64,000 nt of DNA from Hydrurus foetidus (lineage: Eukaryota), in NCBI GenBank assembly GCA_900617105.1, contig UYFQ01000740.1, positions 1-64,000 of the forward strand, read 5' to 3'. Shown here in pieces: positions 1 to 62,276 of this stretch. Below the pieces are notes generated by a model, which was not told the origin of the DNA, made no database searches, and worked only from the letters and a program-made list of their open reading frames with translations. The number at the start of each line of letters is the position of its first letter. Position 1 is the first letter of the stretch. The translations under genes were made by a program, and so were the position numbers.

Positions 1-81
1 AAGTTTCCTGCCGAGAAATTTTTCTTCTCCTCTCTCTTTCCATCCGTCTCCTCCTCCAACTTTACCCGCAACGCCAACATC

Positions 82-1436
82 ATGGCAGTACGACGCCAGG
101 AGAAGAAGACCAGCTCCATCAACGCCCTCCGACGACAGCAGCCTCGAGCTGTGGCCGTCGCTTTCCGCCAACGTTATGAGGAGCATACCCAACGACGAGC
201 AGACGCAGATTTTCCTGGGTCACCTGCGACTCAGGACCCCGCTGGCGACCTGTCTGCACCGATTCCTCAGCGGAATTCGGAGCCTGCGGTCATGTCTGCC
301 ATTGATGTCCCTGTCATTTCTGCATTGAACGCTCTGTCGTTACAACCAGCTTCGGCTGCGACACCAGCTTCGGCAGAGATTCCTATTCCAAGGACGATGG
401 CACCACCCCAGCAATATGTGCAAACGGGTGAGAGAGCTCCTAAGTTGAGCGCCGTGCCCTCTCGTCAGGAAGTACTACGGGTAATGGAAGTCCTCCTTTC
501 AAATGGAACTCCATTTAAACCAGTTGATGTAGTCCATGTTTCCAACCATCAATCGTTTACAACGCTTCTCAAGCGTAAGTTTGCAACTGATCCCGATCGT
601 CGCGACTCCTGTAACAATTGGAAACATTGGTCGAATCAATTGTTCTGTAGAGAACTCAACATCACAGTTCCTACATCAGCTGTCAATCGAACTGACAAGC
701 TGAGTTTCATTGAAACTGTTTCTCAGGTCGCACTTCAATTCGACCTGAAGGATAAATCAGTGGAAGACAAGACAGATCAGCTTTTAGCTGATATTGTTGA
801 TGGATTCCCTGATGCAACACCCGCTCTCCAACTTCAGGCAACTAAAATTCTCATCGATAAGTTGCCAGTCGAACCTATCAATTGGAGAGCAGTGTTACAA
901 CGTAGTCTTAACAATACAACGCCAAGACTCATTACAATCGAAGACTTTCGATTCGTATGGCTTGCGCAGCTTGCTAAGCTACGAGAATCAATTGATGCCT
1001 TACGGTTCATTGATGTCTCTCCTTTGTATGGTGATCACTCTCGCCAAATCAAAGCCCTCCTCGTTCCTCTCAGGACAAAATCAAAAAACGTCCACGAGAG
1101 GACGAGAAATCTGTGCAATCAGACAAGTCTGACAAATTCGAAAGACCTCTGTGCACAGGTTGTGGGAGACTCGGCCATTTCGTCGCCACGTGTTTCTACA
1201 CTACGTCTCCGTACTATAACAGTACAGACGCACCCTATATCAACTCTGAGGGTCATAAGCAGTTGTTGAAAGTCGATTCAAAGGCTAAGTTTATTCCAAC
1301 TTTACCTAAGACATCGACCTCTTCTTCATCGTCTTCTTCTCTTCCTCCTCCTCCTCTTCGTCAAAACCTGCTACTTCAACAGCAGACTCGACAAACGCTG
1401 CGAAGAAACACAAAGGTGAGCAACTATGCAACCTAA
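82..1436 (+). pseudogene. gag: gag-like ORF with zinc knuckle, split by a frameshift near 1100
   Basis: ORF 82-1269 is followed by ORF 1113-1436, which carries C-X2-C-X4-H-X4-C. Confidence 0.7.
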
Positions 1437-1457
1437 ATTCATCATCTATTCTTTCCG

Positions 1458-4400
1458 ATGATCCAGAACTTATTCCTTTCTTCTCCCCTCTCACAGGAGG
1501 TTATGCTGGAAAAAAGTAATAGAGTCTTTACTCTCCTGGACACCGGCTCTTTTGCTGGCAACTTTATACATCGCCGCATTATAACTAATCATAATTTCAC
1601 ACAATTCGTTTCTAACTCTTCAAAGAAATTGTGTAAAGTTTGTAGTGGATTAGATAATCATTGTTATGATATTTCTGACACTATAGACTTAACTCTTTCT
1701 TATTTTTGCCCTGATTTAAATAATTATTATACTTTTCAAATCACGGCTTATGTTTTAAACGAATCGAAATTTGATCTAATAGTGGGACGAAAAACAATTC
1801 GCGAATTGAATTTGTTTTCACGATTCCCCGATCAAATATCTGCCAATGCTTCATCAAGCACTATCCCATTAGCGGAAGTTTTATCTTCTGAGCAAGTGGA
1901 TATAACGTGTGGCTGTCAGCCTAAGGAGAAGTTGCAACCCTCCGACGGCTCCCCAAAAGTCGATCCTTTAACCCAAAAGGTGAAACCGGCAGTCACTCAA
2001 ACACACGTTATTCTAGCTTCACTAATACAAGAGTCTGAAAGACTTTTTGAGGCTGTGCCCCCTGATGAGGATGAAATCGACGACTCGATCAAGGACTCGT
2101 TTTCACCTTGGATAGATGAATTTCCTGATACTGACCCACTCTCGCTAATAAACTTAGCAGGTGATGAAGATCAGAAAAATAAACTTCGGTTACTAGTACA
2201 CGAATTCAAGGATATATTTAGCAGTGAACTTTCGGCCACTCCTGCTGATATTCCACCGTTTGACTTTCATGTCAATGACGACCAATGGAGAGTCCCTAAA
2301 ATAGACAACCTCCATGGTCTAAATCAACAGTTGATCAAGCTGACATTCTTAGTCAAATTACAAAACTTGAAAAACATAATATTGTTGAAAAATCGAACGC
2401 GGCTTATTATAGCCAAGTTTTACTAGTTCCTAAATCTGATGGAACTAAGCGCATGTGTATTGATTTTCGGAATCTCAACAATTGTACCGAAGATAAATCA
2501 CATCCTATTCCACACATCGGTGAGATGTTGCGTAGAATAGGTGCACATAAAGCAAAAGTGTTTGCTGTACTTGACCTCACTCAAGGTTACCATCAAGCAC
2601 CACTTACACTTGCTGCACGTGCTTATACTGCATTCATACTTTTCTGCGGAGTATATCAATTCACTCGTTTACCCTTTGGGCCAAAACAAGCTCCCTCCTA
2701 TTTCCAACAGATCATGACGACTGTTGTGTTAGCAGGGCTGATATACTCTATATGCGAAATGTACATCGATGATTGCAATGTTTTCGGTAAAGACATTGAT
2801 GAACTTATTTCTAGACTTCGTCTTGTTTTGAACGCTTTAGAAAACACAAAATATTCCTTAAACCGAATAAGTGTTATCTAGGCTATGCCGAAATAGACTA
2901 TGTTGGCAAAGTTCTATCTGCAGATGGACTTAGAATGTCACAAGAAAAATACGGACTGTCTTAGATTTTCCTAAACCAGTACTATCTAAACAACTCAAAA
3001 GTTTTTAGGATTGGTTAATTATTTTCACGACTTTGTTAGAAACGCTTCTACTGTTGTATACCCGTTACATCAGTTGCTTCTTAACTATAATAAGTATAAG
3101 AAAATAACTTGGACAATAGAAGCTCTCAGAGCATTCAATTTGATCAAATCCGAGATTTCAAAATGCACGACTATGCACTTTTTAAGTGACACCGATCCGA
3201 TTTACTTGCACACTGATGCATCGGACTATGGTGTAGGTGCCTATCTTTTCCAGTTAGTTGACGGTCAAGAAACGCCCATAGCATTTGTCAGTAAATCACT
3301 CAACAAAGCTCAGCTTCGTTGGGCTGTTATACAAAAAGAAGCATATGCTATCTTTTATTCGTGCACGTATTTAAAATCGCTATTACGTGATCGTACGTTT
3401 ACATTACGAACAGATCATCGTAACTTGTTATACATAAAGGATAATTCAAATCCAATGATTGTTCGGTGGTTTATGGCCTTATCCGAATATTCATTTAAGA
3501 TTGAATATATACCTGGACCTAACAATGATATAGCTGATTCGATGTCTCGACTCTGTCGCAATAACATGGTTGATTTCCCTCAGGAATATACTCCTGATGC
3601 AATCATGTCTGCTAATATTATTGAGAAATTTAAACTAACACGTGAGCAGTACAATACAATCAGTAAAGTACACAACTCACAAGTTGGGCATTTTGGCCTT
3701 GAGCGCACTTTAAAGCGTCTCAAAGATAAAAATGAAATTTGGCAATATATGCGACAGCATGTCAGGTGGTTCATAGATCACTGTTCGTGTTGTCAGAAGA
3801 TGAGTATGTTAAAGATACCAATACATGCTCATGGCTTCTCGACTTCTACTTACACACCTATGGAATGCCTTAACATAGACTTCATAGGACCGTTTCCAGA
3901 CGGCGGGTACGTACTCGTAATTATCGATACGTTCACAAGATGGGTTGAACTGTTTCATACAGAAGATGCTACGGCACTTTCAACAGCTAAATGCCTCTTG
4001 CAACATTTCGGTCGTTTCGGCGCACCTCTCCAACTCCGTTCTGATAATGGGCCACACTTCATTTCCGAAGTTATCAAAGAGTTTCTAACTCTTATCGGCA
4101 CTCAACATTGTCTTACTTTAGCATATTCTAAAGAAGAAAATGCTATTGTTGAGCGCATGAATAAAGAAGTTAATAGACATCTTCGTGCATTAACATTCGA
4201 TAATGTCACACTAGAAGATTATAAGACGTCACTTCCTTTTGTGCAACGAATTTTAAATTCTAACCACAGTGATCGTTTAAAGATATCAGCTTCTCAACTT
4301 CTTTTCGGAAATGTACTGAAACTCGATAGAGGTATCTTTTTACCTCCTGCTGAGCGAAATGTTACTGATGACAAACCTTTGTCAAAACGCATGAGCAATC

Positions 4401-4930
4401 TACTCAAAACGCAAGATAGCCTTCTTAAAGCTTCGGCTAAAGAACTTCTTCGCACAGATTTGCTTCATCAAAGTCAGTCTCAAATTTTTCAGCATGTAGA
4501 GTATCCAAAAGACTCTTATGTCTTGGTGCACTATCGCGATGGATCACCTCCTTCACGTCTTCACACGCATTGGAGAGGTCCATTAAAAGTCGTTAGTGGC
4601 GAAAATTCGCGTTACACTTTATATGATCTAGTCACTCAGAAAACATCAGAATTTCATGTATCTGCCATGAAACCTTTTCTATTTGACCCAGTGATCACAA
4701 ATCCGTTAGATGTTGCACGACGTGATCACATGGAATACTTTGTTGAAGACATTCTTGAACATCGTGGTAAACATCAACGTACCCATATAGAGTTTTTAGT
4801 CAAATGGTTAAATAACCCTTCTGACAAAAACACTTGGGAACCTTACTCAAGCCTTCGTGACGTTGTTAAACTTCATGATTATTTGCGTCATAATAACACG
4901 ACAAAATTAATCAATAAACAACACGGTTGA
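1458..4930 (+). pseudogene. pol: pol polyprotein (PR-RT-RH-IN-chromodomain) broken by several frameshifts
   Basis: ORFs 1458-2426 (DTG protease), 2453-2881 (RT) and 3011-4930 (RH, IN, chromo). Confidence 0.9.
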
Positions 4931-5814: not shown

Positions 5815-5980
5815 CTCTTTTGCGTGGCTATCTGTAAACTCTAATCAGCTCCGTCTAATACGTTGTACTTCACAGCTTCGTCTACTCGATAGCTCACTGA
5901 ATTGAGACAGTAGCCTGCAGCTGCTTCTCCACATTCGCTGCGAACGCTAGAAGGTGACATCTTGTATTTAGTCTTACAAT
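5815..5980 (-). repeat. dispersed repeat homologous to the internal part of the hAT element (~21878-22038)
   Basis: ctgcagctgcttctccacattcgctgcgaacgctagaaggtgaca matches the reverse complement of 21897-21941 with two mismatches; similarity extends over ~150 nt. Confidence 0.8.
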
Positions 5981-7885: not shown

Positions 7886-8067
7886 AGTTTGAAATAATGA
7901 AATAATGCAGCAACGTATCCTACACAGCTGATTCAACATGGGTCAACTGTGCACATCATCAACAATTCCATGTAGCCCAAAACCAAACCTCTAAGCGTCT
8001 TCTCTCCCTCCAGCCCACTGGTTGATGAAAACAACTGGCAAACAACGAGCACACAATCTACGTCATA

Positions 8068-9613
8068 ATGATGAATTTCTATTCGCGTTGGCCACTTCTG
8101 TGCATCATCCTGGCATCAACGATCATTGTTACCACCAATGGTCACTTTACAACAAGATTTTCTCATGGGGTCGTTAAATCGAACCCATCTGTGAACACGC
8201 TTTCCTTTAGAGGTGTTGCACAGCAACGGAGGAAAAGAACTCTCGAAATGGTCAACAAAAATCAACCTTCGACAACACCAAAAATCATCATTGCGGGAGC
8301 ACCGGCAGCTGGGAAGGGAACCCAGTGTGAAATGATAAAAGCCAAGTACGGTCTAGTACACCTGTCGACCGGAGATATACTGAGAGAGGCTGTCAAGCAA
8401 GGAACACCATTGGGAGTAAAAGCAAAGGCATTCATGGAAGGTGGGCAGCTTGTCCCCGACGACTTGATAACGGGACTGATATGTGATCGCTTGAAAGAGA
8501 GCGACTGTCAGACCAACGGGTGGTTGTTGGATGGCTTTCCTCGCACGAGATCACAGGCAGAGGCTCTGTCAAGTGCTGGTATGGTGCCTGACTGCTTCTT
8601 GATGTTGGATGTTCCCGAGGATATTTTGGTGGAGAGAGTAACTGGAAGAAGGACTGATCCTGCTACTGGCAAGATCTATCACATGAAGTTCAATCCTCCA
8701 GAGAATGACGAAGTCGCATCACGACTGGTGCAACGCAGTGACGATACAGCTGAGAAGATAATAGTGCGTTACAAGGAATTTCAAAGTCACATCGAAGCAG
8801 TTAAATCTTGCTATGAGGATAAGATGGTTCGTGTGGACGGCAGTACATCACAGGATGCAGTGCGCAAGTGCGTCAGTGACGCTATAATTCGAAGTATGCT
8901 ACAATCGACAGAAGTTAAAAAGAACACAAACTTAAGAATCATTATTGCGGGAGCTCCAGCAGCTGGGAAGGGAACCCAGTGTGAAATGATAAAAGCCAAG
9001 TACGGTCTAGTGCACCTGTCGACCGGAGATATACTGAGAGAGGCTGTCAAGCAAGGAACACCATTGGGAGTAAAAGCAAAGGCATTCATGGAAGGTGGGC
9101 AGCTTGTCCCCGACGACTTGATAACGGGACTGATATGTGATCGCTTGAAAGAGAGCGACTGTCAGACCAACGGGTGGTTGTTGGATGGCTTTCCTCGCAC
9201 GAGATCACAGGCAGAGGCTCTGTCAAGTGCTGGTATGGTGCCTGACTGCTTCTTGATGTTGGATGTTCCCGAGGATATTTTGGTGGAGAGAGTAACTGGA
9301 AGAAGGACTGATCCTGCTACTGGCAAGATCTATCACATGAAGTTCAATCCTCCAGAGAATGACGAAGTCGCATCACGACTGGTGCAACGCAGTGACGATA
9401 CAGCTGAGAAGATAATAGTGCGTTACAAGGAATTTCAAGGTCACATCGAAGCAGTTAAATCTTGCTACGAGGATAAGATGGTTCGTGTGGACGGCAGTAC
9501 ATCACAGGATGCAGTGCGCAAGTGCGTCAGCGATGCTCTTGATAAAGCGGCCGAGAGCAGACGATCATTACTGGAAGATACTTCTGGAACAGTCAAAGAA
9601 GTGAAAAAGATAG
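8068..9613 (+). CDS. ADK: plastid-targeted tandem double adenylate kinase (exon 1; probably spliced to the LrgB exon; the unspliced ORF ends at 9624)
   Basis: Signal peptide and transit-like leader, then two AK domains with GAPAAGKGTQ, HLSTGDILR, WLLDGFPR and the chloroplast-type GRRTDPATGKIYH..QRSDD. Confidence 0.93.
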
Positions 9614-9700
9614 GTATCCCATGAAATTTTTGCAAATTAGACTTTTTGATGTTGATTTAAGTATAACAGCTAACTTTCCTTAACTTTGTACTAATCTCAG

Positions 9701-11028
9701 GACTTCTCGACATTCAAGGAGGATCAACAAGTCAATTGTCAACATCTCAAAAGTCCATGGGTCAAGCGGCATTTGGAACACTATTTCTAATTGTGATGGA
9801 CAAAGCTATAGCTAAACTATTCAAGGCGAAGAACTGGTCATTTCCCTCCGCTCTCGGTGCCATGGTGGGAGTCTTTCTGACACTGTGCACATTCCGAGTG
9901 TTTAATGAAGATCTAGCGGAAGGCATTTCTGATGGTCTCTCTCCTGCAGTCTCGTTGATAAAGGCCTGGTTGCCCTTGTTCTTCGTACCTCCTCTTGTCG
10001 TGCTTCCCTTGAAGATGCATCTTTTGAAAGGTGTTGGTGTCCAGCTCTCACTAGTGGTCGCGATTGGGTCTGTTCTGTCTCTCACTTCCGCGGGATTATT
10101 CGCACAACTGGTAGACAATTTGTTCCCTGTCACCAAGGTGGAGGGTGCTGCACCTGCTTCACCGGTGGTTTCCGCTCCCCTTCCATCTCTGCCTCCACTA
10201 TCCATTCCTGCAGCAGCAACCGCATTGTTCTTGGCAGGCAGCAAACTACTCCCCCTAATTGCCCCTTCAGCATCTCCGATGGTACGCGGTCTCGTGCAGG
10301 GTGCCTTCGGGGCAGCGGCTACTGTAACGGGCTATATTACAGGCACCAAGCTACCTGCGAAAGTGAAGAAAATCGCACATCCCGTTTTGATCTGTGCTGC
10401 ACTCACCACCGCATTGCTGGTAGTATTTGGGTCACTCAACGGAATCGCAACTGCAGCAGTGCTGTCACAGTACTTCGGGTCAGGGTCAATGCGAGGATCA
10501 GGGGACATCATATCGTCTATGCTGGGACCGGCAATCATCAGTTTTGGAATCCAGCTCTACCAATACAGAGCAATGCTAAGGGAGAACATTTTCAGAGTCA
10601 TGAGCACAACAGCATTTTCAGCCTCTTTTGGTCTCACCAGTTCAGCTTTACTAGTCAAGGCCTTCAAGTTAGCACCCAAGCAGACTGCCTTCGCTCCTCT
10701 AACAAGATGCATAACAACCCCTCTAGCCTTGGCCGGTGCCCGTCTGACCGGCGCCGACCCCTCACTGTCGGCATTCGTCGTGGTGGTGACAGGTATTCTC
10801 GGTGCTAGTCTTGGAGAGTCATTGTTGGAGGCCGTTGGAGTTAAGGAACCTGTCTCAGTCGGCTTGGCTGTTGGTGCTGGTGCCCATGGCCTGGGCGCGG
10901 CTGCCGTGGCTAACGATCCTATCAAGTTCGCGTCAGCGGTAGTATCAATGACGTTGACAGGTCTCTGGACTGTCGCCCTCATGTCGTATACTCCACTCAG
11001 GCAGTGGCTTGTGAAGTTGTGTCTGTAG
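9701..11028 (+). CDS. PLGG1: LrgA/LrgB family multi-TM transporter, PLGG1-like plastid glycolate/glycerate transporter (exon 2 of the AK fusion)
   Basis: LrgA-like FPSALGAM..WLPLFFVPPLVVLPL; LrgB-like LGPAIISFG, RCITTPLAL, VVTGILGA, GLAVGAGAHGLG; no presequence of its own. Confidence 0.85.
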
Positions 11029-13266: not shown

Positions 13267-14894
13267 TCACACACCTATATTCGTTATAGAGAAAGGTAAT
13301 TAGTGCGTTTAAGTCGGATTAGTACGAGTGTCCCTCATTGAAAAAATGATCACGTACCTATTTTAGACAGTTCCTTAACTGAATCTGACAGCGATGATCG
13401 TCTGCTCTCGGCCGCTTTATCAAGAGCATCGCTGACGCACTTAGATACAGCATCCTGTGATGTACTGCCGTCCACACGAACCATCTTATCCTCGTAGCAA
13501 GATTTAACTGCGTCGATGTGACCTTGAAATTCCTTGTAACGCACTATTATCTTCTCAGCTGTATCGTCACTGCGTTGCACCAGTCGTGATGCGACCTCGT
13601 CATTCTCTGGAGGATTGAACTTCATGTGATAGATCTTGCCAGTAGCAGGATCAGTCCTTCTTCCAGTTACTCTCTCCACCAAAATATCCTCGGGAACATC
13701 CAACATCAAGAAGCAGTCAGGCACCATACCAGCACTTGACAGAGCCTCTGCCTGTGATCTCGTGCGAGGAAAGCCATCCAACAACCACCCGTTGGTCTGA
13801 CAGTCGCTCTCTTTCAAGCGATCACATATCAGTCCCGTTATCAAGTCGTCGGGGACAAGCTGCCCACCTTCCATGAATGCCTTTGCTTTTACTCCCAATG
13901 GTGTTCCTTGCTTGACAGCCTCTCTCAGTATATCTCCGGTCGACAGGTGCACTAGACCGTACTTGGCTTTTATCATTTCACACTGGGTTCCCTTCCCAGC
14001 TGCCGGTGCTCCCGCGATAATGATTCTTAAGTTTGTGTTCTTTTTAACTTCTGTCGATTGTAGCATACTTCGAATTATAGCGTCACTGACGCACTTAGAT
14101 ACAGCATCCTGTGATGTACTGCCGTCCACACGAACCATCTTATCCTCATAGCAAGATTTAACTGCTTCGATGTGACCTTGAAATTCCTTGTAACGCACTA
14201 TTATCTTCTCAGCTGTATCGTCACTGCGTTGCACCAGTCGTGATGCGACTTCGTCATTCTCTGGAGGATTGAACTTCATGTGATAGATCTTGCCAGTAGC
14301 AGGATCAGTCCTTCTTCCAGTTACTCTCTCCACCAAAATATCCTCGGGAACATCCAACATCAAGAAGCAGTCAGGCACCATACCAGCACTTGACAGAGCC
14401 TCTGCCTGTGATCTCGTGCGAGGAAAGCCATCCAACAACCACCCGTTGGTCTGACAGTCGCTCTCTTTCAAGCGATCACATATCAGTCCCGTTATCAAGT
14501 CGTCGGGGACAAGCTGCCCACCTTCCATGAATGCCTTTGCTTTTACTCCCAATGGTGTTCCTTGCTTGACAGCCTCTCTCAGTATATCTCCGGTCGACAG
14601 GTGCACTAGACAGTACTTGGCTTTTATCATTTCACACTGGGTTCCCTTCCCAGCTGCCGGTGCTCCCGCAATGATGATTTTTGGTGCTGACATTGGCTGA
14701 CTTTTGCTTATCATCTCTATTGACCCCTTTCGTCGCGGTTCTGCTTCACCTCTAAAGGAAAGCGTGTTCACAGATGGGTTAGATTTAACGACCCCATGAG
14801 AAAATCTTGTTGTAAAGTGACCATTGGTGGTAACAATGATCGTTGATGCTAGGATGATGCACAGTAGTGGCCAAAGCGAATAGAAATTCATCAT
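13267..14894 (-). CDS. ADK: second plastid-targeted tandem double adenylate kinase, stand-alone (unspliced ORF ends at 13350; a probable intron 13357-13275 gives the C-terminus KIGV*)
   Basis: Near-identical to 8068-9613 in both AK domains, with the same ATAG|GTA donor at the end. Confidence 0.92.
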
Positions 14895-15423
14895 TATGAC
14901 GTAGATTGTGTGCTCGTTGTTTGCCAGTTGTTTTCATCAACCAGTGGGCTGGACGAAGTGAAGATGTCGCGTAGTTAGGGCAAGGTTTGCTGCTACAGTT
15001 GATCTAAAGGTACTCTGATGTTATCGACGCTGACTGGCAGTATATTGAATCACGATCAACGCAGCGTTGCTGGTGCTGGTTGCTGTTCGCTGACTACCGA
15101 TCGGAACTACATCGCAGTATAATCGGAGTGGAGCAAAGGGGGGCCTAGCTAGAACTTTCCTAGACACAAGCGCTCGGAACTTTGAACTCGGAACTCGGAA
15201 CCTGCAGAATGTGTAACCGTAGATAAAGGACAAAGCTCCATGCTCCATTCTGCGTGCTTGCATGGTTGTGAATTGTGAAGCCCTGCAGCCCTGCTGACTC
15301 TCAGCAGCTTGAGCTGTTCACTCTGTGTTAATTGAATCATTCCTCTCATAGTGCCTGTAGGCGTCGATGAAATGAGTTTCTGCTACGCATCATTGGACAG
15401 TTAAGGAAAACTTTTATTTCAGG

Positions 15424-21336: not shown

Positions 21337-22907
21337 TAAGGGTGGTGGCCAGGCCAGTTTTTTTTAGCCAGCCACTGGCCATTGGCTAGGCCAGTTATCT
21401 GGCTAGGAGTTACCGGATAAGGCTGGCCATCCTAGCCAGGCTGGCTAACTTTTTATTTTCGTTGGCTGGCTAACTATTTTTCTGACTGGCTAAATTTTTT
21501 TTCTAAGAGACCCCGATTTGAACCCAGTTGGATGCCTACGGCATATTGTGAGGTGGGTGAGAGTTTGTTTATGGGCATAACTAATTAGTTACACTAATTA
21601 GTTACAGTGTCCTGTGTCAATCTCTGCAATTTGTCAGCTATAAGTTTATGTTATTTAATTGAGTCTGATTTACTACCTACAGGAAGTTATCAATGTTGAA
21701 GTTAAGCTAGATAAAGTGATATGTTCAGTATAGTTATGGAGTATATAATTTATCATTACTATGTCACTTGCATCGACCTTAACATGTATAGTTAGTGTAA
21801 TCAAAAACATACACAATATACATACCTAAACGACTATATTGTGTACCCAAAAAGTGGTACACCATTTCAACCATATATGTAAGACTATCGAACAGTTGTC
21901 ACCTTCTAGCGTTCGCAGCGAAGGTGGAGAAGAAGCTGCAGTCTAGCTTCTCAAATCAGGGAGCTATCCAGTAGACGATACTGTGAAGTACAACGTATTA
22001 AGTTCTGCTTAGAGTTAACAGATAGCCACACAAAAGAGTCACATTGAATACATTTTTATCACAGGCATACCATCAACGTCAATTGACCGTGAGCAAGTGT
22101 GGAGGGCAATAAAGGATCTCATGATCGAGCTGTAGGTAATGAGACATAACGCCTGCGCCTGGAGTCCCGAAATTGCCGTTTTGAATGGAGCAAGAGCTTT
22201 ACCAACTGATGAGGACCCATGGGGAGAAGAAGAAGAGGAGGTTCCCGAACCTGGTCCTCCTCCATTGAATATGAATCAAGTTCAACGAGCAGTTACTGCA
22301 GAACTTAATGCACACAAATCCATACTGAGAATAGATATGAGAGTGACATTAGAAAATGGTGACAAAGGTAAATACATTGACCCATTAACATGGTGGAAGG
22401 ATCGCATAGAAAGCTTTCCAACGTTTTGCCAGATAGCAAGGAAAGTACTTTGCATTCCTGCTGCGACTTCTGCCCCATCTGAGAGAGTTTTTTCTGTAGC
22501 AGGACTCACCATTTCGAAAATGCGTTCTAGACTAGACAGCGAAAATGCTTCGTGTCAACTGGGACCTTAGTGATCAAATGAATTCTCCCCAGGTGGAAAT
22601 ATTGAATTAACTATATGAAGTTTGATTTTAATAATGAGATGCATTTCCATATCATGCCGTGCTAAGTAGAACATCATTTCTAATATTGGCTGAAGAGTAA
22701 GTAAATAGATAACTAAAACAAATGAAAAATACACGGATTTTCTCCAATTTCTGTATTTTGGCCAGGACTTTGGCTAACTTGTTCAGTCAATCTAATGGCC
22801 AGTGGCTAGGCTAACAATCATGCCTTGGGCTAGGATTTGGGCTAAGATCAGACCTTTTTTCGGCTGGCCCGGCTAAATCCGATAAAAGGGGCTGGCCACC
22901 ATCCCTA
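21337..22907 (+). mobile_element. non-autonomous hAT DNA transposon
   Basis: 16-bp TIRs TAAGGGTGGTGGCCAG / CTGGCCACCATCCCTA (2 mismatches); perfect 8-bp TSD CGTATACT (21329-21336 and 22908-22915); subterminal GGCT/TGGC repeats. Confidence 0.92.
22139..22570 (+). pseudogene. hAT transposase C-terminal dimerisation-domain fragment
   Basis: [37 protein letters not shown]. Confidence 0.88.
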
Positions 22908-24074
22908 CGTATACTGTACGCCAATCTGGGGGGAGGTTAAATTTTAAATTTCTATTTTTTCGTGTATCATTATGTGTAGGATAATATGTAGGATGCACAG
23001 GTATCATTGGATTATTGACTGACAGGTATGATGTTGACTTAAGTGTATCATGAAGCTGATATTCTACGAAAATACCAATGATGTCGTCATCGATATTGCT
23101 CCTTATCGCCTCAATCAACAGAAACAGGTGGAGAGAGTATTTTCTTTACTGAACTCTTAACTTAACAATTAGCAGCACCAGCGTTCCATAGCCATGTAGA
23201 GACTTCTGCCATTATTACTTTCAAAGAGAACTTCCGCGAAAGAAAACAGTGCATGGTGCATGTAGGAAATACCAAATAATAAAAGTCGAATCATCAGATC
23301 ATTTTTGAATGTTTAAAATGATTGATTCAGTGATTGAAATATGTTGCTGGTACGGATTTCGGTTCATCTGGATTACGGTGCATGGCAGCATAACACACGT
23401 AATTGATTATCTTTCTATGCTGATTTCAAGTGGCATAATTGAGCTGTCATGTAACATGATTAAATTTTGAGAGGCATAATCGAACACCACCGCGGAGCAA
23501 TTCACCTCCAAAAGACGAAATTGTAAACAGGAAGTTGTTTTTTTGCTGGATTAGTTTTCAGAGATCGTGTGGCATAATTGCGATATTAGAGTGTTTGCGC
23601 ATCTGAAATTACTGAGACTCTGCGGACCCTGGATTTTTCTAATTCCCCGAGATTTTCCGTGTTTTGCAGATTTCTTTTTCGAAAACCGTGATTCTCTCGC
23701 AAATTTGCGAAATCAAATTGTTGAGATCCCGTGAATCTCTGCAGGGGATTTGCGAGATTCTCGTAAATTTCAAGATTGTGGGGGTCGGACCGGGAAAAAG
23801 GGGGTCAGAATCTCTGTAATTTCCAATGCGCAAACACTCTATTATCCTGAAGTGGGACAATGGAACCGCAATTGCAGCAGTAACCTGTAATCGACAATAA
23901 CTAGCTGACACCCCGAGCTTTGTAATCGTCTCCACAAGTCGTTAGCCCTCCACGCTCCACGTACTCTAACAATAAGCAATAGGTATGCGTATGGTGCATG
24001 CTGCTGCTACACTGTTTGTTGCAAGTAGTATTTCGGGTTGAAGGCTAACTTGAAGCTTTCCTACTGGAACTGTC

Positions 24075-26066
24075 ATGAATTTCCCAGCTTCAACAAAGTG
24101 CTCGGCGTGCGGAGCGGTAAAATGTAAAATGACTCCGCACCCTCTACTCGAAGTACCTGTCTGCGAAAATTGCTCAAATGCTTATCAGGGAGAGTTTACC
24201 ATAGACAGCGTCACAGGCAACGAAATCTACTGTAGGTGGTGCGGAGAAGGGCAGGGGAGCATCTCGCTTTGCGATTCATGTCCGAAATCGTTCTGTAGTG
24301 GATGCATTCAGCGTAACTTCGGATTGGCGGAGAGTACTCGAATACAAGGATTGAGTGAGCGTTGGAGCTGCTATCTATGCTCGCCTCAAGCTCTGGAGGA
24401 TTTGATTGAGAAAAATGGCTGGAATATTGAGGTGTCAACTAGTTCATCAGCGGGGCCTGTGAAGAAACGGAAGGCGGCCAACGACCCAAACATTATTTGT
24501 AGTGATGTTAGTAGGGGCAGGGAACGTTTCCCCATTCCAGTGTACAATGATGTCGATCATGTGCCAGCCCCACTTGACTTCACCTACGTGACGAGGCATG
24601 TTGCAGGCGATGGTGTAACCATCACTAATAATCCGAGCTTTGTATCTTGTTGTTCATGTACGGATAACTGCCAGGACGCCTCGAAATGTGAGTGTGCGAG
24701 ACTTATGGGTGGGTTCGCTTACAATAAGAATGGGATATATCTTTCTGAGAAAGTAGAAGGAGTTTACGAATGTAATCAGCGTTGTTCTTGTCACGTAATG
24801 CGCTGCAAGAATAGAGTTGTTGGGAAGGGACCCCACTTAAAGCTGCAAGTATTTCGTTGTGCGGATCCGAACAAAGGCTGGGGTGTTAGGTGTCAAACAG
24901 CGATTCCTGCTGGGACATATATTACGGACTATTTAGGGGAGGTGATGCTGGAGTCTCATGCAGACGGCCGTGGTCTAAGTCGATCTGACGAATATCTTTA
25001 TAATCTCGATGCATGGGGGAGAAGTCAAGCATGCCAGAGGTTGTCTGAGCTCGGAATGAAGAGAGGCTTACTCTCAATACCGACAGAATGTGAGGTAGAT
25101 GTAAGCGCACTCACGAAAAATGAGGTGATGAATTTGCTTGGTGAGGAGCTTACTGAGCTGCTCGATTCGAAAGGTGCTCTAGACAGAGCAATCCGATTAG
25201 GCGACAAGCAAGCCAAGGAGAATAGTGCAGCAATGGCCATGTGCATTCCATGCACTAGCACTACAAGTAGCACCTCTAAGAAACGTAAGTCCATTTACAC
25301 TGCAATCATGTTGTATGATCTTCAACACTCACATTCTCATTCATAAATCTTCGTATTCGCAATATGTTGCACCATGGACTGAACGACACAGGGGTGGGAC
25401 CTGTAACTGTCCCTGCACTTGGTGCCACTACATCTTGGTGGCAGAGCAGAAGAGTTTCCAGAGTGCAGGCGTGGAAGAAAGCGACAGAAACCATCAGCGA
25501 CAGAGCTATCATTGAGACGGAGGAAAATAACGACACCTTCACAGTGGATGCGAGGTACGTACTGTAGATACATTCTGTAGATCATTTAAACACTTCCGCA
25601 GATTTGCTTTTACATAATGAATCCAGGATTTATTCAGCCCTCAATTGAATGGCCACCTCTTCATGTCGAATTATTTTCCCTGTTTCTTATTTCTTATTTC
25701 TTATTTCAGACGCTTCGGAAGTGTAGCTCGATTTCTGAATCACAGCTGTAACCCGAATCTTGATATTGTCACGGTAATGGTGGAGTCACACGATGTCAGA
25801 ATACCACGGTATGACGCACTTCGTTCTATTCCTAAGTAACTTTTTTTATTTTGTCCTAAGCAATGGTACGTGAGATGGGGATGCAATGAAATGAAATGAC
25901 AATTTTTGTTCGATGACTTCGTATCAGGGTGGCTTTTTTCAGTGCGGATGCTATACCGGCCATGACGGAACTCTGCTACGATTACGGCTACTATGAAGGA
26001 AATGTCGAGGGAAAAAGTCGAATCTGCTTGTGTGGGGCGCCTGCCTGTCGGAACGTTCTGTACTGA
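24075..26066 (+). CDS. ADD zinc finger + pre-SET/SET/post-SET histone lysine methyltransferase, SUV39/SETDB1 (H3K9) class; 4 exons
   Basis: ADD: CSAC..HPLLEVPVCENC..YCRWCGEG..LCDSCPKSFCSGCIQRNFG..WSCYLC. Cys-rich pre-SET; KGWGVRC; RFLNHSCNPN; ELCYDY; CLCGAPACR. Introns ~25285-25391, 25555-25709, 25809-25927. Confidence 0.9.
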
Positions 26067-26460
26067 TCCCTCTGTTTTATTTTTGTCTGATCTGACATCC
26101 GTTTTGGCAACTTATCCTATCTTTTTTATACTTTTGTGATTGATAATTTTATTATTTCAAGAAGAGGAAATTATCTTTCATTATAATTAATGCATGCGTA
26201 CGCACAGAGAACGTGGATGAAGAGAGTAAGGTGCGATGTATCTTGTCAACGTCAAAGAAAGTGACTGGTAAGTCACGCGTAGCTTTGCCGTGACAGACGC
26301 AGTCTATTAAATAAGTAATAATGCGATATAAATATGCTTAAATATTGAATAGAGAGGACTAGACAAGAGGGACATCATATCCAATACAAAACGTATCAGT
26401 CTGTACAAAATTTTGTTATACACCATGTGGCATGAAGATTGCAGTGTGCTGCAAAATTTA

Positions 26461-28740
26461 TCAACTGAACTTAGCGTCCATTCGATAGGAGGAAATCCTT
26501 TTCAGTACAACGGGTTGTAGAGCACCAGCAGCAGCTGTGTGCGATTTTGTGCTATCCGCTTGACTGCTCCCACTAGTACTGGCTGGAGACCGAGAGATAT
26601 CAGCCATAGGGGCATGAGACTTTCCTAACATCACCAAGGCGTGCGAGACGATTTTCTTCATGCTCGATTCAAGCTGACCTTCCATGAAAGTTCCTTGATA
26701 CTTCAGGAGCGAAGCCACTATATCCGAGACTGTCATTGCCTCCACAAAAGGTAATCCCAGTCCCAACTCATCTATTCTAGCGATGAGCCGCGCCTCTACA
26801 CTGCACACAGATACGTCTGGTAGTGTCCGTGGGTGGGACGCATTCTTGCCCGAGAAGGAGTACTTGGAGTAAATGTCGGTACCATGATCTTTGGGCCCAA
26901 TAAAAAGAGGGAAGATCTTGTCCAATAGTCCTCTTTCTCTCAACTCCAGTGCAAGGACAAACTCAAGCAGAAGGTGGTCGCATTGAGAAGAGCTGTCGAG
27001 AGAAGTGAAGCTGCCTATTGCCTCTCTAGATATCACCGGGAGAAAGGCTTTGCTCTTCATTAGACCGACACAAAACCCGACATCCCAGGGCTCCCCCGGT
27101 TTGAGACATTCCTTGTCCCACCACACCCTCAGCCCTGCACTTCGTAACATGTTGTACAGCATCTCAGCATGTACACTGTCACTGGCTACGCGGTAGGATA
27201 AGAAAACATCATACTCTGCTTCATCATTTATCATGCGGCATATTTTCTTTCCTGTTATGAAGGGGTGTACGAGTACGTGGCGTATACTCGGTCGTTTCCT
27301 TGGTTCTTTTGAGAGCAGTAGAGATATTAAATTGCGCGCAGCAGTGTTTTTCACTCTGGACAGTTTTTCGACTTTCAGACTGTCTGACCATTCAGCCAGT
27401 AGCCTTAAGTCGCTCTCCTCAATATTGCCGTCACCGTCACATAGGAACAAAGGAGCGTTAGCTGCGATGTTATAGATGACCACGCCAAGAGACCAGAGAT
27501 CGTGAGTCTCTGAGGCAGGAACAAGCTCGAAGTCGAAGTCACAGCTCTGATTGTCCCGTCTGTGATTAGCACCGTGCACCCTGTGATTCGGCATATTTGC
27601 CTTTGAACGTACGCACACCACAGAGTCCGTACAGTATATCAACTCTGGGCATACGTAGCCCGAACTGAACTTCATGGCGGAGTATTCAGTACCGGAAATG
27701 AATGAGACTGATGCATCCAAATCGATCAATTTCATTTGCTGCCCTACTCTCATGATATTGAGCGCTGATGTAGTGAAGAGAAGGAAGGAGGAAGGAAGAG
27801 GGCAACGAAGAAGGTTAGGGGAGGAAAGGGGAGCGAAAAGAAGAGGAAAAGCGTCAAGAGGGAGAGGAAGAGCTGTGATGCAGCAAAATGAAGTGGCGAG
27901 AAAAATTTGGTAGGTATATCCAATAAGAATGAGGTGAGCCAGCTGAGGGCCATTGAGGGAATGCAACAGGCACAGTGAGATGTATGGCTAAAAACTGGCA
28001 GAGTAAAAAATTTACAAAATTACGGAAGGAACAATATCGGGTAAGTTGCATGAGGACAAGGGTATGTTATGGTGGAATGCAAGAGTAGAGATGATTCAGC
28101 GACATGACATGATGTGGAAATATTGATGGAATGTGAGAGGCACTCACGTTTGAGGTCTCCGTGAATGAATCCATTGAAATGCATGTGTCCCACAGCTGAT
28201 GCGATCTGGCATGTTATCATGCGAATCTGATCCCAGTCCCTGCCCGCTAAATGCTCTTTCACCATGACGTCACCGAGGTTTCTCTCGCCGACATGCATCA
28301 CAAAGCAATACGGGAAATCAACAAACCCCTTCGCAACAGCTTCATCTCTGAAGTCTGGATCTTCATCACAGTCATGCACTCTAATGCCTCCCATAACGTG
28401 CACCTCGCTGAAGTTACCCAGCGCTCTCACACGCACTTCTCGTAGGAATTGAGCACGCTCTTTCATGAATTTCATCGCCACCATTTTATCGTCATCCTCG
28501 CTTTCGTGGTCAACGGCAAGATGCACTATGCTTGTTTCGGTCTGCAAGAGATTAATTTTTCAAAAAAAATTGGCTTCGCGTTAATAAAGGGCGATTGAAT
28601 GCATTGCGATGTATTGTGTCTAGTGCAGTAAGTATGTATTAGCAATGTGCGAAGTCATACTCCTAAGGTCAAAAAGAAGATGACAAAGAAGAATGCCACT
28701 GCAACGTGTCTGCGTGTGTACATGAATAGTGTTATGTAAT

Positions 28741-28774
<34 letters not shown>

Positions 28775-30334
28775 CTTGTAATGTGGCTGTGCCAAAGTCA
28801 GAATCTCGTACCGCCTGAAGAACAGAAGGTACCGCATGATCGCTTTCTTGCACTTCGGAGATGCAATGTGCACGACCTGCCTGCCCTCTCGATCTTCAGC
28901 GATACTAAGCTGCACCGCGATGGAGGGATAGAGGGAGAGCACGAACACTATTGCGTACTCGTACTTCTCGTACTGCACAGCTCGTGTCCATGCGTACTCG
29001 TGTTGAGCCGCATCGACTGGCAGTTCAGTCATCGGATCCACCGGTAGGCTATTCATGAGTAACTGGGTCACAGCTCGTACGTCAGCATCGGGGTAGTCCA
29101 GTATAAGGGTGAATGCTGTGCGTCCGTCATAGTCCTTCATCTTCGCAGTATCGATGTGCTCCGCAATCAAAGTCAACAGCGTGTCTACTTCCACACGATC
29201 CAATATGCCTTTGTGCAATGGCAGCTTCTTCAAAAACGCAGCACGATTCGCTGCTAATGCTTCAAAGTCAGATTTCGCGGTCTCAATTTTCTGCAACTCT
29301 TTTTCTCGAGTGATGTATTCCTTCTCAGCATTTTTTCTTTTCTTCATTTCCTCCAATAGAGCATATTTATTTTGCAGAAAGGATGACATTTTTATCCGCT
29401 CGGTTTCGTAGAGAATGAGGAGCACAAAAAGAGAATACAGTATATCCCACAGATTTATGTATCCTTGCAAATAAATGACACCCCAGGCGACCCCTGCAGT
29501 GGCGATACACCATGACAGAAATAATGCATTTTTGGGTATGCCCTTTATGCAGATTTGCATGAACAGAGGATTTATATACGATGACAGTATAGCGTCAGTA
29601 GGCGGTTCGTAACTCAAATCGCTCGGATTGCACCCAGATGCTTGGAATATTGAAGTATCATCGGTACATCCACCATACAATACTCTCGCCACCAGGAAGG
29701 TAAGGGTGCATATCGAGAGCAGAATACAAATGGTACTCTCAATGTCGTCAAAGAGCAATTTTCGAATAATTGATCCAGCGATAACTTGCAATCGCGTGCA
29801 GGGAAATTGTGACTGGAGATGTAAGGTGAACAGCTGGCTGAAGTTTTTGGAAATGTAAAGGAAGTAAATGCATACTCCGAAAAGAAATAATGTGAAAGAG
29901 GCAATAAAATAGGGGCCTTGATAAACACTGTAGGCCAAATTCAAACGAGTGAACGAAATTCCCGCTATCAAAAGACAGAACCCCCAAAAAGCAGGCGCAT
30001 GAAGCTGCGCTTTCATGTATTGGCTGTAGTGCATCTCATCGCTTTTATCGATGAAGTCCAGGAATACGGAAAATTTTGGAGCTTCACGAGGACTTCGCGA
30101 ATCACTGAATGTCGCAGTTGTTCCAGTTGCGTCATCTGGGTTGTGATATGAAGCTGATAATTCGACGGGAAATTTCTTCCTAGAGTTTACAATAATATCT
30201 CTCACGGAGCTAGAATGATGATTTGGTCTGGGTTTCCGGAATTGTTTCACTCTGCCATGCAAGGATCTACTGAGGTCAACTTCGAATGCTTCATCATTAT
30301 CCGAACCACATTTTTGATCATTCCGTACGCTCAT
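26461..30334 (-). CDS. multi-pass membrane protein with ankyrin-like repeats, Ser/Thr kinase and C-terminal TIR domain; 3 exons
   Basis: About 6 hydrophobic helices; DYDGRTAF and DREGRQVVHIA; VAMK, HGDLK|PLN, DLD, CPE, DLWSLG; TIR YDVFLSYR..LRVWWDKECL..FLPVISR. Exons ~30334-28775, 28541-28149, 27764-26461. Confidence 0.85.
28743..28772 (+). repeat. (GT)n microsatellite at the start of an intron
   Basis: Read directly. Confidence 0.9.
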
Positions 30335-30840
30335 TGAACTGTCCTCGATTTCAATGTGAAGGCAAGAAAGGCTTAGCGAATTCTTCACATTCGGCAGCCT
30401 GTCACATTAAACGACTTGAAAATCTCGTGGTGGGCATCTTGATGGGGGGATACTCCAAATAAAAGCCTTGCTAGCGTCAGTCAGAATGGTTTACTGTTTA
30501 TTTCTTGTTATACTACACAGAATGATCGAGATCATCCCATCTCTCTCTCGTCGTGGTGCAGAAAACAGAAAAACTGTTCCAGACGAAATTCCGTCTTTCA
30601 TAGAAGTACGGTTTTCAATTGAAGTTCAACGAAATTCGAAACTGCACATCACTCACAATTCACAGTGGCTTGCTTCATAGCGTTCTCGTGGCACATAATC
30701 GCCTTTCAACACCCTCTATGAGCTCTTACAGGAGCCAAACGTGATAGTTTAGAGTGCTACAAAGTTTTCTGCAATAATTCTTTCCTCTCATTTCTGGGTT
30801 TATCGGTATCAGACAGTTGAAGGAAGACAAAACGCTCCCG

Positions 30841-31248
30841 ATGTTGAAGATCTTCCTTGTTCAGCTCTTTCTACTTCTTAGTGCCACCACATCTAACGGG
30901 TTTTCCATTAGGCTAGGTCGCAGTTATCCTATATGCAGCAATCTCAGAACCCCCGGGACGCTGAAGACTTCGCATAAATCTCCAACCAAATTGTACATAC
31001 AGCCGGAAACTGAAGGAGAAACTAACTCGCTCGTAGCTGATCCAAAGGCCAAACCACAGGGATATATGTCCTCAGATCTTGCTAGCAATGAGGACGGCAA
31101 GCAAGGCAGAGTCTTTGGATATATTCTATTTGCACTAGTTCCTGTTCTTTTCTTGGTACCATTTTTCTTGTCAAGAGGATTTGAACCGCCTGTTGATCCG
31201 GAGATGGAGGTGATACCGAAAGTAACAGTTCAAACTACTAAGAAATGA
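30841..31248 (+). CDS. small probable plastid/thylakoid protein with one C-terminal TM helix, function unknown
   Basis: Signal peptide ending SNG-F, S/T/K/R-rich transit-like region, TM VFGYILFALVPVLFLVPFFL. Confidence 0.65.
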   Translation: MLKIFLVQLFLLLSATTSNGFSIRLGRSYPICSNLRTPGTLKTSHKSPTKLYIQPETEGETNSLVADPKAKPQGYMSSDLASNEDGKQGRVFGYILFALVPVLFLVPFFLSRGFEPPVDPEMEVIPKVTVQTTKK

Positions 31249-31589
31249 GGCAGCACAATGTCAAGCGAGTGACGCGTTCAAGATATTTGACGGCAGGTTT
31301 CTGTAGCACTAGCGTTCGGAATTCGTCGGGCTCACATGAAAACGGATACTACAGAGGCTCCTTCGCACCTAGATTCCAGCTAGAGCAACGCAATGAGAAT
31401 CGAAGCTGATTCTCTATTTCAATATATTTTTACACATGTTCGTTGAAGTTTTAAACTTTTGAATATCAAGGACTAAATTATCAGTAAATTGAGACTGGAC
31501 TACTAACTCCATTTCGGATGTAGAAAAACAAATAATGTACAAAGTAATCAAATGAACACTATTTTAAAGCCCGGCAGTGATACGAATAA

Positions 31590-60935: not shown

Positions 60936-62276
60936 ATGATGATCAAATTGACTGTTGTCTTCGCCGTCATTGCCTCGGCACTTGGCTTCAACCTGCAGAT
61001 GAAAGCAGGTGAGAAAGCCGTGAACCTATGCAACCTCCGACCTAAATAACCTGCGGTGGATCTGCCTTCAACTGTCGTACCATCGGACTCATCCGCTTCT
61101 CCGAAAGTGATTAATTGATTGCCTCTGAATTCATCTTGCATCAACTACGCATTCTGTACTGCGCAGCTATGCCATCACTGAACAAAGTGGTGTGCGCAGG
61201 CCTCGCTGGTATCTTCGCCTGTGGCAGCATTAACATGCCCGCCCACGCCCTCACAAAAGCTGAGACCATGAGTCTCAGCTACGGACAGGTCAAGGGATCA
61301 GGCCTCGCGAACAGATGCCCCTCCGTCGTAGGCGAGGAGACTATCGCTTTGAGCAATGGCAAACAGTACAAGATCACTGACCTCTGCATCGAGCCAAAGT
61401 CATGGCAGGTCAGCCTGTCAAACTGATGACCAAAGATACTCTGAACGACAAACTCCATATCGTTGCTTTGCTAATGAGATGCGCCTCATTTTTCTGATGG
61501 ACTACGTAGGTCCAGGAGGACGCCCTCCAGAAGGGCAAGACCGAGAAGGAGTACGTCAACACAAAGATGATGACCCGTCAGACATACAGTCTGGACGGCA
61601 TCTCCGGCATTATGGAGCTGAAGGAGGGCAAGGCAGTCTTCACGGAGAAGGACGGTATTGACTATGCCGCGACAACCGTCCAGATGCCTGGAGGCGAGCG
61701 CGTTCCTTTCCTCTTTTCAGTGAAGAACCTGATCGCGACTGGCTCAGACTCAACCATCAAGCCTGGATTCGAGATGGGTGGATCATTCACTGTCCCATCA
61801 TACAGAACTGGCCTTTTCCTTGACCCCAAGGGCCGTGGCACGACTACCGGATACGATTTCGCTGGTGCCCTTCCAGGTCTCCAGAACGGATATGAAGGTG
61901 TCGGAGAGGAGAAGCTCTTCGAGGAGAACAACAAGAAATTCGACGTTCTTTCAGGTGCGCAACGACTACTCAAATGATAAGATGGAACGAACCATTCACT
62001 TAAATACGTAACATCAATTAAAAATAGGAAACATTGAGTTCGCAGTGAACAAGGTAAATGCCGAGGAAGGCGAGTTCGGAGGTGTCTTCGTTTCCAAGCA
62101 GCCAGGTAAAAACTGCGTCAACACGGGTTTTAATGAATGCTATATTAAAAAGAGTGATTATCTAACTACGTCACTCTGCAATCCCCACTACGTCAGGCGA
62201 CACTGACATGGGTGGCAAGAAGCCAAAGAACATCCTTTCCAAGGGCATCTTCTACGGCCACATCGAGCCACTCTAA
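60936..62276 (+). CDS. psbO: photosystem II oxygen-evolving enhancer protein 1, multi-exon
   Basis: Signal peptide ASALG-F; lumenal AHA cleavage site; [48 protein letters not shown]. Confidence 0.97.

Follow-up and report, generated by a model that had tools for sequence, protein, structure and literature searches.

The window analysed here, a stretch of 64,000 nucleotides (nt) of the Hydrurus foetidus genome (assembly GCA_900617105.1, contig UYFQ01000740.1, positions 1 to 64,000), holds at 26461-30334 on the minus strand a spliced gene whose three exons join into a single open frame of 1085 amino acids (aa). One transcript carries a membrane block, a protein kinase and a TIR domain, and residues ~368-1030 form an ankyrin-like/kinase/TIR cassette that is found behind different N-termini in a large protein family. 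We tentatively read the product as a six-pass receptor. The gene is organised as follows.

28775..30334, minus strand: exon 1, aa 1-520, with the probably cytosolic N-terminus, the membrane block, the helical linker, the ankyrin-like segment and the start of the kinase; supported by RNA and by seven orthologous open reading frames (ORFs) ending at the same intron position
28542..28774, minus strand: intron 1, 233 nt, GT..AG, phase 0, with a CA repeat at its start; exon-1 letters stand in the loose ends of X9, X10 and seven X11 reads
28148..28541, minus strand: exon 2, aa 521-652, kinase N-lobe to catalytic loop; Pkinase E 1.5e-4
27765..28147, minus strand: intron 2, 383 nt, GT..AG, phase 1; joint 27764/28148 in 4 + 13 reads and in contigs of X2, X9 and X10, unspliced in X7
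26461..27764, minus strand: exon 3, aa 652-1085, kinase C-lobe, TIR domain, low-complexity tail and stop; Pkinase 3e-13, TIR_2 3.4e-10
30335..30492, minus strand: likely 5' untranslated region; RNA cover stops near 30490

Ten of the 12 listed RNA runs (cited by an X number) contain the gene region or part of it, and six of these ten are freshwater or lake metatranscriptomes. X11 and X12 are raw-read runs from one poly(A) sample, of each of which ~6 % was sampled; X7, which may be the source of this DNA, belongs to the same study as X9 and X10, and X11/X12 are from a different study and differ at several sites. All three exons were covered ~5-20x, on the expected strand, in the X11/X12 reads, which represent culture RNA. 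Intron 2 was spliced out in 4 and 13 of these raw reads and in three contigs. For intron 1, seven X11 reads, one X9 contig and one X10 contig pass from exon 2 into the last 30 letters of exon 1; a TG repeat had masked this intron in the joint table, and the junction was recovered by mapping the reads onto 26200-28700. The X9 contig (3575 nt) has 1565 nt on exon 3 and the 3' flank, 396 nt on exon 2 and a further 1575 nt, a length that would take it to 17 nt before the ATG. The first 30 letters of this last part were seen, the remainder being deduced from its length and a word share of 0.83. The first-pass annotation, made from the sequence alone, had proposed that the three exons are joined and had named separate transcripts for the membrane and kinase-TIR parts as the finding that would speak against it. 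With both junctions present in RNA, and a 3575-nt contig that fits all three exons, the joining was borne out. The exons had also been called in phase, and the frame is indeed open throughout; however, junction 1 is in phase 0 and junction 2 in phase 1, falling within the Pro codon of HGDLKPLN. Both introns have stops in all three frames. Mis-joined neighbouring genes were ruled out by the RNA, a pseudogene by the open frame and the silent-biased strain changes, and a bacterial or viral origin of the locus by the introns and a nuclear PsbO gene at 61510-61974. The introns, the PsbO gene and an LrgA-LrgB fusion identify the host as a photosynthetic eukaryote. Mallomonas is the one organism named for any strong homolog, and this, with the freshwater runs, suggests an alga of chrysophyte type.

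Pfam places Pkinase in exons 2 and 3 and TIR_2 in exon 3, with no credible family in exon 1. Neither NB-ARC nor NACHT, the STAND NTPase of NLR/TNL proteins, was found in any exon with Pfam, nor was there a leucine-rich repeat (LRR) family in exon 1 in the Pfam/HMM libraries. The Pfam check suggested earlier thus succeeded for Pkinase and TIR_2 and failed for Ank, which is absent from exon 1. Together, the RNA junctions and the Pfam domains uphold the proposal of one chain in which a membrane block is joined to a kinase and a TIR domain, and all the motifs quoted for it (GGC..SGCNP, YETERIK, VAMK, HGDLKPLN, DLD and CDHLLLEF) are present in the translated gene. The protein is divided as follows, with TM standing for transmembrane.

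29405..29998, minus strand: membrane block, aa 113-310, likely six TM helices, N-terminus and C-terminus inside, without signal peptide; from hydropathy, a low-confidence model and loop charges
29594..29677, minus strand: likely outward loop, aa 220-247, with Cys223 and Cys235; Cys pair in 8/8 orthologous rows, 0 Lys/Arg, 5 Asp/Glu
29228..29404, minus strand: charged helical linker, aa 311-369, running on from the last TM helix, likely a coiled coil; helix 295-369 in the model, 87 % ortholog identity
28826..29227, minus strand: ankyrin-like and helical segment, aa 370-503, the N-terminal part of the family cassette; 95 % identity among orthologs
27250..28825, minus strand: atypical protein kinase, aa 504-823, spanning both introns; K544, E555, H647, D649, K651, N654 and D666 kept, Gly-rich loop replaced, DLD for DFG
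26629..27219, minus strand: TIR domain, SARM1/AbTir-like, aa 834-1030, codon of E919 at 26964-26962; from Pfam, the alignment and a profile search against the PDB

The cassette connects this protein to a large family. When the kinase C-lobe and TIR domain were searched against proteins of 759-2165 aa, 73 matches were obtained, 66 of them at E ≤1e-34, and most of the 73 align from residue ~365-480 to ~1030. Sixty-two were aligned, seven weak matches, two that start inside the kinase and two with doubled kinases being left out. According to precomputed Pfam lists the N-termini of the 62 contain LRRs (17), ankyrin arrays (31), class C G protein-coupled receptors (GPCRs; 2) or other sequences (12), and the GPCR assignment is firm (7tm_3 at 1.4e-27 and 8.8e-11). 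A hydrophobic window lies upstream of the cassette in 16 of the 17 LRR members, as one TM segment, and in 3 of the 31 ankyrin members. In 11 of the 13 membrane-bound members examined the cassette opens with an LPLH-like motif, a short way behind the final TM helix; here it starts at the corresponding point, aa 371, and the exon-1 part of the cassette is 36 % identical to that of a GPCR member. The six-helix block was absent from all 66 strong homologs. The comparison indicates a family cassette, residues ~368-1030 in this protein, with swappable N-termini; in the LRR-TM and class C GPCR members it is coupled directly to receptors of known type. The architecture, which had been taken as a one-off, is therefore that of one member among at least 66 proteins.

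In a kinase and TIR tree obtained by a quick search and left unrooted, the N-terminus label changes 17 times against a minimum of 4, and the starred branches force at least three LRR and two GPCR changes. For this reason the N-terminal modules appear to have been repeatedly exchanged or lost, the tree giving neither order nor direction. The protein of the window lies among GPCR and LRR members, without strong support (90), and its nearest identity is 46 %. Viral contigs gave 17 loci with generic weak kinase matches (21-36 % identity), none over the TIR domain, and nothing with the TIR profile; prokaryote genome contigs gave just two short matches to the TIR start, and plasmids none. No true relative was thus found among the viral and prokaryote contigs searched.

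Some homologs are of interest in themselves. P0059 and P0060 combine a class C GPCR (7tm_3, in P0060 also ANF_receptor) with the ankyrin-like/kinase/TIR cassette in one ORF; both of these GPCR-type ORFs stop 40-45 residues into the TIR domain, most likely at an intron. P0003 and P0064 have two kinase(-TIR) units in tandem.

The ankyrin-like motifs noticed earlier held for part of the segment only. A profile of aa 368-430, built solely from the 22 rows of non-ankyrin class, picked up 13 of the 27 ankyrin arrays tested and none of the 27 reversed controls; with a profile of aa 440-505 the counts were 1 and 0 of 27. Residues 368-430 are, by this profile evidence, probably a degenerate ankyrin repeat pair, which a family-specific helical part would follow.

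The kinase residues expected for catalysis are kept throughout the family: among the 62 homologs K544 is found in 61 of 61 filled rows, E555 in 61 of 62, H647 and D649 in all 62, K651 in 59, and N654 and D666 in 60 each. A PEHxSATS-type loop replaces the Gly-rich loop, and D-[LFM]-D-A replaces DFG, family-wide; the kinase of the window also has CPE for APE. The first-pass annotation had listed VAMK and HGDLKPLN as kept, no Gly-rich loop and DLD for DFG; all four were found in the translated gene, the last two as features of the whole family. Because the loss of the Gly-rich loop and the DLD motif are family-wide while the catalytic residues are kept, the odd motifs are family traits and not signs of decay. 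The evidence for a kinase fold comes from a model of the homolog P0010, which contains the whole cassette, and not from the spliced kinase of the window itself. This model has a predicted local distance difference test score (pLDDT) of 90 and a predicted template modelling score (pTM) of 0.81 over 807 aa, and its kinase range, 157-498, matches CDK/CAMK folds (Z 25.4, root-mean-square deviation 2.9, 253 aligned), in agreement with Foldseek; the Foldseek and VIA lists for it are filled by kinases. A pTM of 0.81 suggests that the ankyrin-like, kinase and TIR domains sit in fixed positions relative to one another.

The TIR domain scored 40.9 bits with TIR_2 against a Pfam cut-off of 28. When a profile of eight TIRs was compared with solved structures, AbTir and SARM1 came first (E 1.2e-7 to 2.6e-7) and plant TIRs lower, and PADLOC defence-system TIR models matched all eight TIR rows. 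In SARM1, mutations at Y568, D594, G601 and E642 lower the NAD+ hydrolase activity, according to PMC8266388. The first three align with Y842, D868 and G875, which are kept in 62, 62 and 61 of the 62 homologs, respectively. E919 was equated with E642 not by a tool alignment but by counting (22 and 20 residues, respectively, from a shared Ser) and by its place in the helix that follows strand three of the P0010 model (helix 594-607, with the equivalent E598). Both E919 and D914 are invariant in the 60 filled rows. The earlier suggestion of a TIR domain with a Glu at the catalytic position is thus supported by TIR_2 above the cut-off, AbTir and SARM1 as the nearest structures and the invariance of E919, and the domain is predicted to be of the NAD+-cleaving type with its Glu in place.

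The six membrane helices proposed earlier were recovered in part: hydropathy gave five TM segments, one of them weak, and the sixth, aa 248-264, comes from a helix predicted in the low-confidence model, 88 % identity among orthologs and the charges of the loops. The three predicted outer loops are without Lys/Arg and the inner loops carry Lys/Arg. On these grounds six helices are likely, the two termini being cytosolic and the loop with Cys223 and Cys235 facing outward, and a disulfide between the two Cys is likely from the sequence. The heptad pattern of the linker is modest. The hydrophobic residues 461-479 were not counted as a further TM helix, since they lie inside the cassette common to soluble homologs.

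Of 1388 candidates searched with the TM block, seven proteins matched, at 70-93 % identity, and none more distant. These orthologs represent 45 member sequences, all from metagenome-type sources, and two scans for metagenome loci with the TM block gave none. All seven are exon-1 ORFs that extend to the intron position found here and retain the two Cys, the block and the linker. Across the eight sequences, the window protein included, the ankyrin-like part is 95 % identical, TM4-6 and the linker 83-91 % (87 % for the linker), and TM2, TM3 and the loops 60-65 %. Strain differences, which bear on the positive-selection test suggested earlier, were mostly silent: 14 silent and five replacing in exon 1 (from the X1 contig, for which 25 of 28 differences were listed, 19 of them coding) and eight silent and one replacing in exon 3 (X10/X11). 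After site correction the ratio of replacing to silent changes was ~0.10 for exon 1 and ~0.04 for exon 3, which fits purifying selection overall. Two of the five replacing differences in exon 1 are within the Cys loop, numbers too small to call. No paralog was found within the 64-kb window, and the gene neighbours are a SET gene and PNO1.

We propose, with a probability of roughly 0.45, that the protein is a six-pass receptor in which an outside cue at the membrane block shifts the helical linker, likely dimeric, so that the cytosolic ankyrin-like/kinase/TIR unit is switched, phosphorylates and cleaves NAD+. The transcript, the domain order, the kept catalytic residues and the membership of the cassette family are directly supported, and from these we infer a ligand, a dimer, gating, both enzyme activities and a location at the cell surface. 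The six helices and the disulfide-bonded outer loop would bind a small molecule or sense the state of the membrane. The last helix, continuing into a dimerising helix of 60 residues, would relay the change to the ankyrin-like segment, in the way of the six-TM (6TM) anchors of cyclases and histidine kinases. The ankyrin-like segment, kinase and TIR domain would form one packed unit; the kinase would phosphorylate itself or partners, and its activation or autophosphorylation may free or cluster the TIR domain. Clustered TIR domains could then hydrolyse NAD+ to ADP-ribose or a cyclic isomer, acting as a second messenger or, at high output, as a death signal. The cue is more likely to be a steady signal from the environment or from other cells than a pathogen pattern that changes fast. 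6TM anchors work as ligand receptors in CqsS-cyclase chimeras, according to PMC4821796. It may even be, although we consider it unlikely, that one output unit stands behind at least three unrelated membrane sensors in golden algae and their kin (LRR with one TM, class C GPCR and, in this protein, a six-helix block of cyclase/quorum-sensor type), a receptor toolkit so far unreported, and that the present protein, as a quorum-sensor-like receptor, couples a small molecule of bacteria or other algae to NAD+ cleavage without a G protein or adaptor.

Several results weigh against the proposed receptor. The structure model of exon 1 was unusable (pLDDT 40), and Pfam and NCBIfam gave nothing credible for the TM block. 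HHalign of the block against four MASE8 proteins gave a probability below 1 %, the same as the reversed control, both profiles being shallow. In the kinase the Gly-rich loop and DFG are absent, and 8 of 52 conserved columns differ, when the median homolog differs at 3 and only 4 of 62 at as many. The printed SARM1 alignment stops at residue 632, 10 residues short of E642, and at the position of SARM1 W638 (register counted) there is no Trp, the residue being His in the window protein and Asn in 57 of 60 homologs. Close to the Glu the TIR domain of the window departs from the family by N915H, V916L, R921V and a loop seven residues shorter. The ortholog comparison, moreover, covers the exon-1 part only, as the kinase and TIR exons of the seven orthologs were not seen.

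The origin of the TM block is a related question. The likeness to adenylyl-cyclase anchors mentioned in the first-pass annotation was found in Atlas, which uses language-model features. Its named neighbours of the block are AC_N (0.89-0.90, on 33 % of members) and MASE8, 6, 7, 11 and 2 (0.84-0.89), and clusters without a family name, from haptophytes and ciliates, lie at 0.92; this is one source, uncalibrated for protein parts. Pfam, NCBIfam and HHalign did not support it, an earlier HHalign run with seven loci, three of them false matches, having likewise given less than 1 %, and a cyclase/MASE-type origin is therefore a lead. The fold search with the exon-1 model returned generic helices only (best Z 7.2), and a PDB sequence search with exon 1 nothing credible. 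Exon 1 had no match among proteins of 911-2600 aa, a weak test that also missed homologs later found to match exon 1, and an exon-1 profile gave four weak matches in 201 genomes of one bacterial phylum, none spanning the whole TM block.

Throughout the living world TIR NADases take part in immunity and in cell death. It is thus conceivable, though we regard it as unlikely, that the protein is an innate-immune pattern receptor which kills or alarms the cell under viral, bacterial or parasite attack. The PADLOC matches are in line with such a role, as are the 17 LRR family members, 16 of which have one TM segment and thereby a Toll-like layout. The Cys loop, TM2 and TM3 are also more variable among the orthologs (60-65 % compared to 87-95 %), and this outer loop accounts for two of the five replacing strain differences. 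The protein itself, however, is without LRRs or another large ectodomain, was already transcribed (~10x) in culture RNA, has no paralog in the window and housekeeping neighbours, and is under purifying selection overall. The specifically immune role suggested earlier was therefore unsupported. As the orthologs are conserved, selection is purifying, the window holds no paralog and the neighbours are SET and PNO1, a conserved standing sensor fits better than a fast-evolving arms-race immune gene, although a defence role is still compatible. Improbable too, in our view, is that the membrane block is a mere anchor, in the plasma membrane or an organelle, and that the cassette is switched from the cytosol via the ankyrin-like segment or an upstream kinase. 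That only three of the 31 ankyrin-array members have a hydrophobic window indicates that no membrane sensor is needed for the cassette to work. In addition, conservation among the orthologs peaks in the ankyrin-like segment (95 %), and the outer loops are short. Still, anchoring would not call for six helices, for two Cys that never vary and for 83-91 % identity across TM4-6, and the other membrane members bear true receptor modules.

The remaining alternatives concern the output. A TIR domain that serves as a non-catalytic adaptor recruiting other TIR proteins, with the kinase as the output, would agree with the departures beside E919 and the family's lack of a Trp at the W638 position; the GPCR-type ORF pair shows just the first 40-45 TIR residues, but most likely as an intron effect. 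We consider this quite improbable, since E919, D914, Y842 and D868 are invariant in the filled rows and the nearest solved relatives are enzymes rather than MyD88/TLR adaptors, and four TIR departures are nothing unusual, as 21 of 62 homologs differ from the consensus as much. Least probable is a pseudokinase that acts as a nucleotide-binding switch and keeps the TIR domain off until the sensor fires. It would explain the missing Gly-rich loop, DLD for DFG, CPE for APE and the more numerous departures from the consensus than in most homologs. The residues by which inactive kinases are recognised in PMC3019232 (VAIK Lys, HRD Asp and DFG Asp) are nevertheless kept here and near-invariant in the 62 homologs.

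The closest known layouts are the Kinase TLRs and Kinase TIRs of Richter et al. 2018, described in that paper (PMC6040629) as unique to choanoflagellates and as uncharacterised. They share with the algal protein a kinase followed by a C-terminal TIR domain in one chain; the choanoflagellate forms are with or without a membrane segment and have been proposed to bypass adaptor-kinase assembly. As far as described there, Kinase TLRs have LRRs and one TM, whereas the algal protein has no LRR and about six TM helices, the TM-kinase-TIR order being the same. Kinase TIRs are defined by the lack of a TM segment, and the algal protein has five to six. It further differs from the choanoflagellate proteins in its algal host, the ankyrin-like segment before the kinase and the atypical D-[LFM]-D kinase. 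The likeness is thus one of layout, outside the published definitions, and no choanoflagellate sequence is among the named homolog matches. As a separate observation, P0028 (Mallomonas), P0006, P0008, P0017, P0023, P0027 and others show LRRs, one TM, the ankyrin-like segment, kinase and TIR domain, a Kinase-TLR layout outside choanoflagellates.

With SARM1 and AbTir the algal TIR domain shares FLSYR, WWD, the BB-loop Gly and the helix-C Glu. Unlike SARM1, the protein has no ARM or SAM domain, is membrane-bound, contains a kinase and has Asn/His for W638. It would resemble the 6TM anchors found in class III adenylyl cyclases, CqsS and MASE (PMC4821796) in its likely six helices (five by hydropathy, six by model and charge), ends predicted to lie inside and a predicted helical linker leading to a cytosolic enzyme. 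It differs from them in giving no sequence match, in two long loops (36 and 28 aa) where theirs are mostly short, and in its effector, kinase-TIR instead of a cyclase or histidine kinase. GPCR-bigrams and GPCR-kinase fusions are reported from oomycetes, amoebae and choanoflagellates in PMC6033456, PMC12716839 and PMC10463195. These, too, are multi-pass receptors with a kinase of their own, and two cassette members are class C GPCR fusions; the block described here, however, is not a 7TM GPCR, and the published kinases are mostly TKL/TK in those sources. In the main texts of PMC10463195, PMC12716839 and PMC3019232 the term TIR does not occur. No publication on algal kinase-TIR proteins was found in the literature searched, chiefly outside subscription papers and excluding supplements, which possibly tabulate such architectures, nor was one found there on GPCR-kinase-TIR fusions.

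Kinase-TIR receptors have been reported as specific to choanoflagellates, and an expressed, conserved example is now available from an alga. As it belongs to at least 66 proteins whose sensors are interchangeable, signals at the cell surface may widely be passed on to predicted NAD+ cleavage in microbial eukaryotes, which bears on how plankton algae sense microbes or chemical cues. The protein also provides a compact system for asking whether a TIR enzyme can be gated by a kinase of its own chain, and whether a kinase without the Gly-rich loop and DFG is active.

On either side of the receptor gene the window contains other genes. A zinc-finger, Pre-SET and SET histone methyltransferase gene (24054-26060, plus strand) converges on its 3' end. 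At its 5' end a short gene on the plus strand (30711-31250) has no Pfam family, an N-terminal hydrophobic leader and one late hydrophobic stretch, and was read ~200x. This gene starts ~220 nt from the receptor 5' end on the opposite strand, and because the two starts diverge at so short a distance a shared bidirectional promoter is likely.

Further away, positions 7998-9579 and 13383-14964 form an inverted 1582-nt duplicate (96 %) of a double adenylate kinase gene, each copy with an internal repeat at 654-nt spacing that is 98 % identical. This could be a recent duplication or an assembly effect. A LrgA-LrgB fusion (9667-11025) lies between the duplicate arms. The start of the window, 1-4927, is a chromodomain-bearing LTR retroelement with RNase H, integrase and chromo domains in 2990-4927, and a hAT transposase remnant (22136-22570) lies beside one arm of a 123-nt inverted repeat of 86 % identity (5856-5978 and 21878-22000).

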